A stretch of 63,192 nt of DNA, filler included, from Olpidium bornovanus S191 (GCA_017911155.1; 29 parts of 29 records of this genome joined end to end with filler, not necessarily neighbours in it), one strand, 5' to 3'; counted from the first letter of the whole stretch, positions 35,183 to 63,157 are shown. The notes: generated by a model not told the origin, from the letters alone. Numbers and translations: made by a program.

Positions 35183-35267
35183 TGCTGGAAGAGGGGTTCG
35201 AACCCTCGCATCATTTCTGATACCGCATCTTAAGTGCAGCGCCTTAGACCCACTCGGCCATTCCAGC
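35183..35267 (-). tRNA. tRNA-Leu(UAA): tRNA-Leu (anticodon TAA), intronless, long variable arm
   Basis: Acceptor stem GCTGGAA/TTCCAGC plus discriminator A; D-arm GCCGAGTGGGTCTAAGGC; anticodon arm CTGCA-CTTAAGA-TGCGG; T-arm GAGGG-TTCGAAC-CCCTC. Confidence 0.97.
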
Positions 35268-55279: not shown

Positions 55280-56234
55280 ATGACCGGATCGACCGCCACC
55301 CTGAACATCGCCCTCGTCGGCGTCGGCCTGGTAAGGACGGCGAGGTCGGGAGGCAAGGAAAGAGTCATCGTGATCCTCTGGCGGTGCTAAAAAGAAAAAG
55401 TAAACAAATAACATAAAATAACAACAACGTTCGGCCTTACCCCGACCGCTTTAACCGGCCCCGCAGGTGGGCTCGGAACTGCTGAGGCAGCTGGACGGGC
55501 TGTCAAGAAACGGCGCCGGGTGCCCGTTCAGGCTTGTGGCCGTTGCGAGCTCGTCGTCCCTTGTGACGGGCTTTTCGCTGCCGTTTGCCGGACCCTTCGC
55601 GCTCAAAAAGGATGATCCTGGACGGGTCCCGCTGAACTTCGACGCGCTGGTGGGCCACCTCGCGGCCCTGGACGGGCCGTCCATCATCGTGGACTGCACT
55701 GCCAGCGACCGCGTTCCGGAACTCTACCCGGGCTGGCTGCGCGCGGGTGTGAGCGTCGTCGCCGCCAACAAGAAGGGCTTCGCCGGACCTGCGCGGCTCT
55801 TCCGCAACATCTACGACGCGTCCTCGCAGGGCGGCGGCGGCGGCAAGCGCGCGTGCGTGTACCACGAGTCGAGCGTGGGCGCGGGTTTGCCCGTTATCAG
55901 CACCGTGCGGGACCTGATAAAGACGGGCGACATCATCAAGAAGATCGAAGGCGTCTTTTCCGGCACGCTGAGCTACCTGTTCAACGTCTTCTCCCCGGCC
56001 TTTCCGTCGCCGGGTGCCGCCCCGCCGAAATTTTCGCAGGTGGTCAGGGCGGCGAAGGAGATGGGCTTCACCGAACCGGACCCTCGCGACGACCTGAACG
56101 GCATGGACGTCGCGAGGAAGGTGACCATCCTCGCGCGCCTCGCTGGGCTTTCCGACGCGGAGACGTCTTCGCTCGACGTCGCCTCCCTCGTTCCAAAGCC
56201 CCTTGAGAATGCCGGCACCGCGGAAGAGTTCATG
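55280..56234 (+). CDS. hom6: Homoserine dehydrogenase Hom6 (exons 55280-55330 and 55467 onward; 3' truncated)
   Basis: Rossmann motif NIALVGVGL-VGSELL, then IIVDCTAS, VVAANKKG, HESSVGAGLPVI, IEGVFSGTLSYLFN and GFTEPDPRDDLNGMDVARKVTILAR. Confidence 0.97.
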
Positions 56235-56431
56235 NNNNNNNNNNNNNNNNNNNNNNNNNNNNNNNNNNNNNNNNNNNNTTAATTAATTAANNNNNNNNNN
56301 NNNNNNNNNNNNNNNNNNNNNNNNNNNNNNNNNNACATGTGGTTGAGATGAACATTAGCGGATAAATAAAAAAAAAATCAGAAAACGAAGTAACGGTGTT
56401 ATTTCTTTTCTTCCCCCCCGCAAATTCCTAG

Positions 56432-59137: not shown

Positions 59138-60075
59138 ACCTCCACACTGGAGTGCATTGTCCCACACGAGAGACATGCGGACGCGGCGGCCATGAGGGAC
59201 GACACGGGAAACGCCGGTCGACGCAGCACCACCAGAGGGATGGCGGGAATATCGGAGACGGCGAGCGATCTTCCTCCGAATCGAAAGACGACGATTTGGA
59301 CGAGCTTTCGGTCGACGAGGAGGACGATTGTCGGCGGCGGCGGCGGTTCGTCGAAGAACGACGACGAGACCGAGCCGGGGGCGAGCGCGAGGGAATACGC
59401 GCGGTTGCGGTCAACGGGCGAACGGTCGTCGATGGGTCCGCAAGTCGAGCAGCCGTGCGGTCGAGGCTTGCCTGGAGAAGCGACAGGGAGCGGCTCGGCG
59501 CACGGTACGAGGCAGCCATCTCAATGAGGTGCTCGTCGAGTGAGGCGCAGGTAACGCTCAACTCCTGCAACGAAATGGACGGGTCGTCGACGATGGCGGG
59601 AAGAGCGGCGTCAATGTCGGTTAAAAGCGCAACCGCGGTAACAGCACCAACGCGGGCAACGATCGAAGCGAGCCACTCAGCGAGTCCAGCAAGCTTCTGC
59701 TGACGAAGGACGGCGTCAAGAGCGTTTGCGGTATTGTTGAGCCCGACACGAGCGGACGAAGCGGCGGGCGCAGCGGCGGGCGTGGCGGCGGGCGTGGCAT
59801 CGAGTGCCTGTTCAGGGACGAACATGGGGACGCGAAGCGGCGGTAGATCCATCCGGGTGTCGAAGGACGGCGACAGCGGGATGGGGACGGCGGCGGGGTC
59901 AACGGGTGCGGAGGACGACGCGGCAACGGGCGCGGGGGAAGACGCGGCCGAACGAACTGCGGAGTTTGAAGGGTTTGACGCCGGCGGGAGAGCGGTGCGG
60001 GTCGCCGTTATGTGGGGCGACAGCGGCAGCGGCAGCGGCATTGCGCCCTTGCGGCGTCGACAACGCGGGGAGGGC
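59138..60075 (-). CDS. Intronless ORF of unknown function, possibly gag-like, downstream of the dUTPase-MTase-protease ORF
   Basis: About 310 open codons: Pro/Ala-rich start, helical core (LNNTANALDAVLRQQKLAGLAEWLASIV), Arg/Ser-rich tail. No zinc knuckle visible. Confidence 0.35.
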
Positions 60076-60737
60076 ATCGTCAACGGCTGTCGTCGACGGC
60101 AAAAACAATAGAGCAAACGAGGACGAAAGCGCAGGGAGCGAAAATAAGCTCAGTGAGCAAAAATAAGCTCGAAAAACAAACGCGGCGGCGGCCGAGCGCA
60201 GGCGCAGCGGGGGCAGAGCGCGGGCGCAGCGACGGCGGAGCGCGAGCGCGGCGGGGGCCGAGCGACGAAAGCGATGGGAAGCGGCGTTTCGAAGCAAAAA
60301 TGGGCGTCGTTTCGGCGGCGAAAAGAAACGAACGCAAGGGCGGAAACGAACGCAAGCACGAGAACGAACACAAGCGCAAAAACAAGCAGGCAACAAAAGC
60401 GAAAACGGGTGCTGCGGCGGAAGGTGGCGCGGCGGAAGCCGAGCGCGGGCGCGGCGGACGCGAAGCGCAGGCGACGAAGCGCGGGCGCGGCAGAGGGCGA
60501 AGCGCGGCGGAAGCCGAGCGCGAGCGCAGCGGGGACAGCGCGGGCGCGGCGGGGAGCAAAGCGAAAGAGCTGGTCGAAAAGGGAGCTGGTCGGAAGGGAT
60601 GGTTCTTCCTCGGATTCCCCACTTTGTAGTGATACGTTCAAAGGAGGAAGGACAGTCGGAGTCTATTCAGGTGGGGCCGGGGGCCGACTGGCTATATAGG
60701 TACAAGTCACGTGCCCAGTCGACGTCGAGAGGGCCCA

Positions 60738-63032
60738 CTACAGCTCGCCGATCGTAATTCGAACATGCGCATGGCCTATCGGCTCGGTGATAGTACCGTT
60801 GAGGCCTTGGATCTTTGTTACAGGCCCTCGGATCGGATATTTTCGCAAGTGTTTCTTCCAATAGGTGAAGTCTACACAGTCACCCTGGGACGCCGTATCA
60901 AGTAATCCCGTATGCATTTGGCCATCGATTGTAAGTGGTGCATATGCCTTCTTTTTCGGCCGCTGTCTCAGTTCGAGTATCTCGAACCCTTCTTCATCAA
61001 ACTCATCCGTTCCATCGGTCGCTACTGGCTCCGTACTGGAGGCCGCTACCTTTATGTGTGTGCTTGATACTTGCACCGCCGTCCGTCCCGGGGGCGTACG
61101 CGCATCAAATTTGACAGGTACTTCATTGTCAACATAATAGAAAGGTAGTTTTCTTTGGTTTGGATAAAACGTCGCTGCCCGCGTAGTCGGGACATGTGCC
61201 GTCTGCGTTAACCGCTTGATAAACTCTGCGCGCTTCGCACCATCTCCGGATATCCGGACGACCATTGTCTCTGCCCATGGGGGTACTCCCACACCGATAT
61301 CATTTGTCGTTCCCGGCAAGAACAAGTCCTTGCTGTGCGGCAGCAACCGCGGATAGTCGCAACTCAGCCACAACAGGTGTTTGTACCATGACGCGCTCTT
61401 CCATACCGGTGCTACTACCGTCATTGTTACTTGCTCTAACAATGCCTTGTCAATTATTTTCCAGAACGTTGGCTCGTCAAAGGGTGGGTTAGCCCACGCA
61501 TTCTCGTTCGACCACCGGTGCGCAAAGGCATTATAGCCGGTTGCCTCCACATCGCTACGCGTGTGAGTGTATCGCCGTGGTACGTGTCCGTTATTCGGAT
61601 CTGAGAAAAGGTCAATGGTATGTGGATCCCACAATTTCTCGCACGTTTGGCACCATTGCGGGTTCAACTTCCAATCATTCTTGTCCTGCTGCGTTACTGC
61701 CGGGTGCGTGCACGCATGACCAACCTGCCTTGCGGCTATGCCAGTTGATCCAAACCCGTTCGACCCTCTGGCCGTGTCTGCGTCTACTACGCCAGTATCA
61801 TCCGCTGCTTGAAGAGTAATCTTCGGGATTGCTTGCACAACAAGCTGCGCCAGTCTATCGCCGGCCTTGAAGAAGAATTCCTTCCGAGAACTTTTCATAG
61901 CGATAATTGCCAGCTCGCCCCAGTAGTCGGAGTCGATCAAGCCCGGGTGTACATCGATACTTTGCAAGGCTAGTCCGCTTTGACCCATAATTTTGCCTGC
62001 ATATCCGCCGGGGATTGCTAATGACAGTCCCGTATTAATCTTCCTCCGTTCGCCTGGCGGGATAGATCCGCTCTCGCACATGTGCAAGTCTAGACTCGAC
62101 GCTCCTTCTGTTGCGCGTTCCGGCCATTGCGCCCACGTTTGCACTCTTCGCATGTGGACGGTAGTGTCCTCGGTCGCCCACCTTTGCCATTTGTCGATAT
62201 TGAGAGCGGACGCATACGTTGCTGCCCCTTGCACTCTCTCGAGCGCCGCCATGAACAGAATACTTCCTGCATTGAACGTAACCGTTCTCTTCTTCATTTT
62301 GTTGCGGAGGCGTATTGCCTCGTCGCCTGGTGCAAATGGCTCTACGACCTCGACGCGATGATGTCCCGGTATTACAACAAGTTGATACTGCTCGTTTGGT
62401 ATTCTTACATTCAAGGGCACCGGGATACTCGCGGCTTTGCCCGGTTGGAGGGTAACCGTCCAAATTGCCTGGACGTCTACGACGTCGTCGCACTGTATGA
62501 CCAACTTGCCCTTTTGCCACTCCGGCTTCCGATATTGGAACGCAATGACAGGTGCGAATACGTCGCTCGTTTGCGGACGTGATTGCAGACGCAATTCTGA
62601 TTTTTCTTCCGGACGCGATTCCGGCCGCGATTTTACTTCCGCTGGAATCAAAGGGACTACGTCCCCCCTCGCTTCTTGCCCAACCGGTCGCCGCCCCTGC
62701 TGGTACTCCAGCTTCCCGAGGGCTAGTTCTCGGCTCCGTGTTCCTAATCGCAAGGCATTAACGCTCGTCACATTTCCCGTCGTTTTCCCGACCTGGTTCA
62801 CACCGTGAACCGCGTCGGGTGGCGCAATAGTGCTGCCTGGTGGAAACTCTGGTGGAAATCTACATGTGGCCACTGTTGTGGTGTGTGTGGTTCCGGTGAA
62901 GGCTCTTCCGTTTATTAGAAGGGGGGGCACCAGGGGTTTACGTACGGGGCCCACTCGATTGGAGCCCAACAGTAAGGAGAAGCGGGCGGTACATCGAGCT
63001 CGAGCGGGGGTATCGAAGTCGGGCAAGAGCAT
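60738..63032 (-). mobile_element. Retroelement polyprotein fragment: degenerate dUTPase-like domain, dUTPase, Dam-type N6-adenine DNA methyltransferase, retropepsin-like protease
   Basis: One intronless 764-codon ORF. dUTPase at about 62110-61741 (SLDL, GQSG, GLIDSDYWG, GDRLAQ, RGSNGFGSTG). MTase at about 61680-61245 (DWKLNP, TIDLFS, AWANPPF, VVAPVWKSASWY). Protease at about 60950-60738 (LTIDGQMHTGLLDTASQGDCV...IQGLNG). Confidence 0.92.
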
Positions 63033-63033
63033 T

Positions 63034-63157
63034 GGGATCGAGCGAGGGCTCTGAGGCCGAGCGAGAGGTCCCGGGATCGAACGGAAGCGTCGAGAGCGAA
63101 CGGGAAGCCTTGGGATCGAGCGGGAGGCATCGAGATCGAATGGAGGGCATCGAGATC
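63034..63157. repeat. Degenerate 39-bp tandem repeat (GGGATCGA-anchored), 3 or more copies, upstream of the retroelement ORF
   Basis: GGGATCGA occurs at 63034, 63073 and 63112. The minus strand is Arg/Ser/Pro-rich, as expected for a gag tail. Confidence 0.7.

Follow-up and report, generated by a model that had tools for sequence, protein, structure and literature searches.

A polyprotein frame on the last contig

The window, by which we mean the whole stretch of 63,192 nucleotides analysed here, comprises 29 contigs of 1-4 kb from the Olpidium bornovanus assembly that are joined by 100-base spacers containing TTAATTAATTAA, and contigs on either side of a spacer are not necessarily genomic neighbours. 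The element described in this work is located on the last contig (59138-63192, 4,055 bases). Its minus strand contains a stop-to-stop open frame of 805 codons (60738..63155, hereafter P0001), which almost certainly represents the beginning of a Ty3/gypsy Pol polyprotein, cut short inside its protease. From the N to the C terminus the frame encodes an all-beta region termed domain X, a dUTPase, a methyltransferase and a partial protease. An earlier note on this DNA had claimed that the motifs of a dUTPase, a Dam-type methyltransferase and a retropepsin follow one another in a single frame, and all of the motifs it quoted are indeed found on the minus strand in this order: the dUTPase motifs at 62099-61740, DWKLNP at 61676-61659, IDLFS at 61616-61602, ANPPF at 61493-61479, APVWKSASWY at 61412-61383 and LLDTAS at 60905-60888. 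In Pfam searches the dUTPase matches PF00692 (E 3e-25), the methyltransferase reaches 19.9 bits on Dam PF05869 (E 6.5e-4) and thereby misses the curated threshold of 28.1, and the window protease alone has no match. Two features go beyond the earlier note, namely that the protease is cut by a probable nested LTR element and that an extra, likely dUTPase-like fold lies upstream of the dUTPase.

In the approximately 800 bases between domain X and the contig end we found neither a gag match nor a zinc knuckle, and a tblastn search with the full-length relative P0002 revealed no RT or integrase piece in the window. The public gene model of the region (P0009, 60738-63155) joins a different N-terminus to the P0001 frame and bears the UniRef name dUTP diphosphatase; a transposon fragment has thus been catalogued as a host gene. 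Elsewhere in the window, the plus strand carries an open frame at 55455-56282 which by eye resembles a homoserine dehydrogenase.

Relatives share the domain order

Two full-length relatives carry the assignment. P0002 (2,122 aa, ENA) was found with the methyltransferase-protease part as query, is 52% identical to P0001 over amino acids 487-804 and has the order Dam, protease, RT, RNase H and integrase in one frame. P0160 (2,174 aa, Logan), which was found with the protease-spacer region of P0002, matches amino acids 210-804 of P0001 in one BLASTP stretch (31% identity, E 3e-94) and is composed of domain X, a degenerate dUTPase, Dam, protease, a dUTPase-like spacer, RT, RNase H and integrase. 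Because P0160 matches P0001 in a single stretch and then continues into RT, RNase H and a DDE integrase, the domain order is no chance join and the polyprotein is a Ty3/gypsy Pol rather than one of DIRS type; as the window copy itself ends inside the protease, its own assignment to gypsy is by collinear homology. The proposal of the earlier note that this is a protease-type, probably Ty3/gypsy-like element is thereby borne out, and the full copies have turned out to be neither ordinary DIRS elements nor products of chance nesting.

The order Dam-PR-RT-RH-IN is also found in P0007, and in P0084 (JGI) a dUTPase is followed by Dam. Alignment places five fragments, P0013, P0014, P0021, P0057 and P0084, in this family as well. 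The C-termini of P0002, P0160 and P0161 contain a stretch that by eye looks like a chromodomain, with Pfam Chromo not reported for them. Searches with the family alignment against metagenome and viral contigs, and with P0160 against metagenome contigs, yielded no confirmed relatives and no DNA loci of known ones.

The Dam profile is matched by 154 of the 156 proteins examined, which are the best matches of one query collected before P0160. Within these 154 the domain is mostly of DIRS-type context (94) or stands alone (41), it follows a gypsy RNase H or precedes an integrase in 12, precedes a protease in 5, and in one case each follows a dUTPase or lies between an endonuclease and RT. Some proteins of this set combine the domain in other ways. 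P0004 (ENA, 1,465 aa) is a dual-methyltransferase element, with a C5 cytosine methyltransferase and Dam in the same frame as a DIRS-type RT, and looks DIRS-like, not LTR-like. The order in P0148 (2,382 aa), whose RT is highly divergent, is protease, exonuclease/endonuclease/phosphatase, Dam, RT, RNase H and integrase.

The prevalence of DIRS-type contexts and the presence of one probable nested insertion at 60742 on this very contig are what might be expected if the three domains were a chance fusion of nested insertions, such as a DIRS piece in a gypsy element, or an assembly chimera. However, independent proteins from Logan (P0160), ENA (P0002) and JGI (P0013 and P0084) have this order too, and no DIRS RT, RNase H or recombinase was found beside the methyltransferase domain in the window. 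A fortuitous join, largely refuted by P0160, is therefore extremely improbable, and we assign the frame with high confidence to the front end of a Ty3/gypsy Pol with the order domain X, dUTPase, methyltransferase and protease.

The dUTPase and dUTPase-like folds

The dUTPase domain (amino acids 343-472, 61740..62129, minus strand) scores above the cut-offs of TIGR00576 (113 bits, cut-off 102.55) and PRK00601. When aligned with PDB 3c3i (alignment E 5.5e-25), three of the five conserved motifs of trimeric dUTPases (3, 4 and 5) are intact; in motif 1 a Ser replaces Gly and in motif 2 a Gln replaces Arg, with the motif numbering checked against this alignment. The relatives differ in this domain as judged from alignment: in P0160 it is degenerate, with motif 5 missing and motifs 2 and 4 damaged, P0084 has lost the aspartate of motif 3, and in P0002 the dUTPase is absent. 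Because the dUTPase is thus degenerate or absent in relatives that keep the methyltransferase motif, the idea of the earlier note that the element carries the two enzymes as a paired kit is weakened, and since the dUTPase has been lost in relatives it is not needed.

Domain X (amino acids 216-307, 62235..62510, minus strand) was delimited by alignment and has counterparts in P0002 and P0160. Model comparison suggests a likely dUTPase-like fold that has degenerated and lacks the catalytic motifs. The strands of its predicted structure resemble those of the adjoining dUTPase, in a model based on 6 sequences that reaches a pLDDT of only 61 overall; its ESM Atlas matches, at 0.92, belong to dUTPase-rich clusters, one set being 37% PF00692; and a VIA comparison matched it to Tlp20 (Z 6.5, rmsd 2.8, 85 aligned), which we take to be of the dUTPase fold class. 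By hhalign, domain X showed no significant similarity to dUTPases or to the spacer between protease and RT (probabilities of 0.8 and 2.1, respectively). This spacer, as present in the full-length relatives, is itself degenerate and dUTPase-like (hhalign probability 88.6, E 3e-6); up to three such folds seem to be present in the family.

The methyltransferase domain and its possible substrates

Profiles, the IDLFS and NPPF motifs and a structural model together identify amino acids 486-654 (61194..61700, minus strand) as a Dam-like N6-adenine methyltransferase domain of PCIF1 fold. It is followed by a family-specific extension (amino acids 655-688, 61092..61193, minus strand) that is conserved in alignments of the close relatives. 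The domain matches phrog_111 with an E-value of 1.4e-6. NPPF is located at amino acids 556-559, the NPP triplet is present in all 8 family proteins that span the site, and NPP(F/Y) as well as DxFS are kept across family Dam domains that are only about 50-65% identical.

The AlphaFold2 model of the domain (205 residues, from a 63-sequence alignment) has a pLDDT of 91.9. Among predicted viral structures its best matches are phage N6-adenine methyltransferases (top E 2e-9), with PCIF1-like proteins ranking lower than the phage DNA adenine methyltransferases. Among solved structures, by contrast, PCIF1 is the best match both by Foldseek (E 1e-5) and by VIA (Z 11.3, rmsd 3.8, 159 aligned; next DNA enzyme 8.6; T4 Dam 7.6). 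Sequence searches of PDB with the methyltransferase gave nothing significant, with PCIF1 appearing only at E 0.52, and tblastn against annotated phages gave no match at E 0.01. As the closest solved structure is that of an RNA cap methyltransferase, DNA is not the sole candidate substrate.

The general kind of element is known, as Fernandez-Moreno et al. (bioRxiv 10.64898/2026.05.21.726589) have described gypsy elements with a Dam domain as DAM-LTRs. According to the main text of this preprint, DAM-LTRs of two ichthyosporeans carry more 6mA and are more transcribed than other LTR elements, those of Euglena show no rise in expression, and Dam-deficient E. coli gained no 6mA from the DAM proteins. 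The negative E. coli result would be accounted for if the domain worked like PCIF1 and methylated the element's own RNA, at the cap-adjacent adenosine or in the template strand, thereby stabilising or disguising the transcript. This possibility draws on the agreement of the two structural methods and on the placement of DIRS-type domains in the PCIF1 clade by Iyer et al. (PMC4738411, in the part of that article concerned with these domains). We nevertheless consider it unlikely. The model covers only about one quarter of the length of PCIF1 (TM by target 0.24-0.26), with no counterpart shown for the cap-binding parts, a shared fold shows no substrate, the ranking of the predicted viral structures points to DNA enzymes, and it is the DNA of DAM-LTRs that is reported to be enriched in 6mA.

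It is likewise doubtful that the domain is a non-catalytic module binding nucleic acid or SAM, with the dUTPase folds serving as structural spacers or oligomerisation modules of Pol. Iyer et al. judged DIRS-type domains likely inactive (PMC4738411, same part), and of the three dUTPase-like folds, two are devoid of catalytic motifs and the middle one is variably decayed or gone in the relatives. Then again, the retention of NPP(F/Y) and DxFS in the family, and of NPP in 125 of the 154 Dam-profile matches, speaks against such a role.

The protease and a probable nested LTR element

The frame ends with the N-terminal two-thirds of a retropepsin protease (amino acids 735-805, 60741..60953, minus strand) whose catalytic Asp lies in LLDTAS and which is collinear with P0002, P0160 and P0021; the C-terminal strand present in the relatives is missing. 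On a profile built from 9 outside gypsy proteases it scores 2.3 bits, a value reached by one of 500 shuffles, as compared to 19-27 bits for the complete proteases of the relatives, which match aspartyl-protease families weakly (E about 1e-3). What identifies the window protease is accordingly its unbroken alignment to these complete, better scoring proteases, whose second half continues at exactly the break point in the window. The end of the fragment P0013 (JGI/IMG, 316 aa) lies no more than one residue from this cut, probably because of a contig end or by coincidence.

At the break point lies a candidate 5' LTR of 118 bp (60625..60742, minus strand) with a 7-bp perfect terminal inverted repeat, which begins with TGTAGTG, ends with CACTACA and supplies with its first bases the stop codon of P0001. 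Each terminal 7-mer occurs once on the minus strand of the contig, and no second copy of the candidate LTR is present in the window. Three bases behind it follows a primer-binding-site-like TGG... stretch (60608..60621, minus strand), which does not match the 3' end of the only tRNA that ARAGORN reports in the window, tRNA-Leu (TAA) at 35183-35267 on the minus strand. Further downstream (59138..60607, minus strand) a GC-rich repetitive leader (66% GC) leads into a frame of 337 codons that runs off the contig end and that received no Pfam, NCBIfam or Atlas assignment; from its position, this would be the probable gag region of the nested element. As the far end lies off the contig and the 337-codon frame has no family match, it is these hallmarks that point to the insertion of a probable second LTR element in the same orientation as the Pol frame. 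A candidate LTR of 118 bp is unusually short.

Two other explanations of the repeat were rejected. A solo LTR does not fit, for the 5 bases preceding the repeat are not found again behind it and protease coding does not resume, and neither does the 3' LTR of the Pol element itself, for the protease codons reach the repeat directly and the preceding 20 bases contain only 11 purines. Since the TG...CA repeat of the probable second element cuts the protease, the copy is dead, and as RT and integrase do not follow it cannot transpose on its own.

Phylogenetic position of the family

With 82-83% identity among their RT-RNase H regions, P0002, P0160 and P0161 group as a clade (100/100) that adjoins the Dam-less element P0162 (88/96); P0161 starts inside the protease and hence gives no view of its Dam region. 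The RT-RNase H of P0002 is 37-54% identical to 23 Dam-less RT-RNase H-integrase polyproteins, a set without named reference clades, and the identity of all three to the set's 10 other gypsy proteins with Dam is 25-37%. A tree in which their RT is held together with 8 other Dam-bearing gypsy proteins was rejected (AU p 0.02), for a group that was chosen after the tree had been seen, that leaves out P0140 and P0148 and that was drawn from our own search results.

In the tree of the Dam domain (46 rows, unrooted and without phage rows) the five family rows form one clade (100/99). A split of 96/99 separates the family, all gypsy-borne domains and the DIRS-type P0017 from 22 DIRS-type rows and one orphan. 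P0084, which covers half of the domain and was unstable in its placement, was left out of the final tree. Three ENA proteins, P0010, P0020 and P0094, form a separate Dam clade (100/97), and in P0010 the Dam domain is followed by a protease motif of weak score and by the beginning of an RT, possibly a second pre-protease lineage.

In the main text of the preprint DAM-LTRs are divided into five lineages, namely chlorophyte, chloro-ochrophyte, ichthyosporean, Pyropia and Euglena. Because its RT lies apart from the other DAM-LTRs that we found, the present family is probably a further lineage of these elements, as far as can be read from the sequence comparisons. The preprint's Dam screen at E 1e-5 could have missed it, as the family members reach 9e-6 to 8e-4 on Pfam Dam, with the proviso that E-values of different searches are not comparable. 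The gain is therefore a new lineage and a new architecture and not a new class, the general kind having already been published.

The host

Does the element reside in Olpidium, a root-parasitic fungus? The architecture might be real but the contig derived from another eukaryote and binned with Olpidium, in which case the family would not be a fungal lineage. The NCBI record of the same protein region (P0009, 100% identity) is labelled 'MAG: hypothetical protein [Olpidium bornovanus]', and a published O. bornovanus genome was binned from non-axenic zoospores, as stated in the sections of its publication that deal with assembly (PMC7865070). In tetranucleotide composition the P0001 frame correlates with the remainder of the window at 0.20, towards the bottom of the range of 12 other contigs (0.16-0.69). 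This test, however, is too noisy on pieces of 2-4 kb to decide, the GC content of 53-55% is near the range of the window, and the same sections of PMC7865070 describe conservative binning. We regard a foreign origin of the contig as quite unlikely. If the host is Olpidium, the family extends DAM-LTRs to the sister group of the terrestrial fungi, in which active genes carry 6mA; for early-diverging fungi, 6mA at ApT is an established finding (PMC12695648). A literature search found no publication joining Olpidium with 6mA.

Proposed function

For DAM-carrying retroelements the open question is what, if anything, the domain methylates. On balance we favour a reading in which the frame is a gypsy Pol front end broken by a likely second LTR element, the Dam-like domain likely methylates adenines on the reverse-transcription intermediates of its own element, and the dUTPase is a dispensable extra. 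As to the job of the Dam-like domain itself, DNA-directed self-methylation is our leading mechanism, put forward tentatively and by analogy. Against it stand the negative E. coli assay, the lack of raised expression in Euglena, the view of Iyer et al. that DIRS-type domains are likely inactive, and the closer structural match to PCIF1 than to solved DNA enzymes.

In retrotransposons generally, Gag and Pol are produced together, Pol is taken up into the particle and the protease cleaves it. Packaged Pol of the present family would in this way release methyltransferase and dUTPase within the particle, which would bring both enzymes to the site of cDNA synthesis. There the Dam-like domain may lay 6mA on the RNA-DNA hybrid or the cDNA, and the dUTPase may lower dUTP during reverse transcription, as extrapolated from what the consulted sections of PMC4531489 say of retroviral dUTPases. 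According to the model in the main text of the preprint (bioRxiv 10.64898/2026.05.21.726589), 6mA is placed on RNA-DNA intermediates and later maintained by AMT1, which was found in 9 of 13 DAM-LTR species; by this model the host AMT1 would keep up the mark after integration and the new copy would stay transcribed.

As the Dam-like domain lies ahead of the protease, cleavage would likely set it free as a separate protein whose ends can be defined. Because of this position, because the catalytic motif is kept and because full-length members (P0160, P0002) are at hand, the family offers a practical subject for the methylation assay that was negative in E. coli.

A bolder proposal, which we hold to be distinctly improbable, is that of a separate zoosporic-fungal DAM-LTR lineage with a nucleotide-chemistry cassette at the start of Pol. 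Three dUTPase-type folds, able to assemble in a single chain, would surround an active methyltransferase of PCIF1 type, whose target would be the RNA or the RNA-DNA hybrid of the element itself and not double-stranded DNA. If true, it would explain the failure on E. coli DNA, and retrotransposons would gain an RNA-directed adenine writer of their own.

Comparison with known systems

With the published DAM-LTRs the family shares the Ty3/gypsy type, a DIRS-related Dam domain with an intact Asn-Pro-Pro triplet and a proposed exploitation of host 6mA chromatin. It differs in that the wording of the preprint's main text places Dam between RT and integrase, whereas here the domain stands before the protease and after a dUTPase; Fig. 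2B of the preprint may show a pre-protease Dam. The main text makes no mention of fungi, dUTPase, protease, gag, PCIF1 or Olpidium. The suspicion of the earlier note that the architecture had not been described is thus correct only in part: gypsy elements with Dam and the model of 6mA mimicry have already been published, but the order dUTPase-Dam-protease is absent from that main text. Our literature search, with Repbase and GyDB outside its scope, found no published report that joins dUTPase and Dam in a gypsy Pol.

Elements of the DIRS1 group carry a homologous methyltransferase domain (PF05869) but, according to the passages of PMC3783388 that describe them, in the order RT-RH-MT together with a tyrosine recombinase and without protease or DDE integrase. 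In the present family, by contrast, the domain precedes the protease and the relatives carry an rve (DDE) integrase, features at variance with membership in this group, and the DIRS Pol P0011 matches the window over the methyltransferase domain only. To PCIF1/CAPAM (PDB 6irx, 6irv), the best structural match among solved structures, the domain is only 13% identical in sequence, and PCIF1 is a much larger cellular enzyme that acts on capped RNA.

A dUTPase in a gypsy Pol has precedents in the fungal elements PosPlaTy3-3, -4 and -5 (PMC2864245, in the text on these elements; also PMC6431247) and in Juno, Vesta and TelKA of bdelloid rotifers (PMC5408684, likewise). As here, the dUTPase lies inside Pol and in PosPlaTy3-3 is amino-terminal (PMC2864245); in others it is found between protease and RT, the very site of the dUTPase-like spacer in our relatives. 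Unlike these elements, the present family has a methyltransferase and apparently up to three dUTPase-like folds, and the term 'methyl' does not occur in the available text of PMC2864245 or PMC5408684. Finally, the family resembles betaretroviruses, with their order NC-dUTPase-protease, in that a dUTPase lies upstream of the protease (PMC4531489, same sections). It differs from them in that the upstream frames contain no CCHC zinc knuckle, that a methyltransferase intervenes and that the RT of the relatives is of gypsy type. The betaretroviral layout is a parallel to that of the present family and no sign of kinship.
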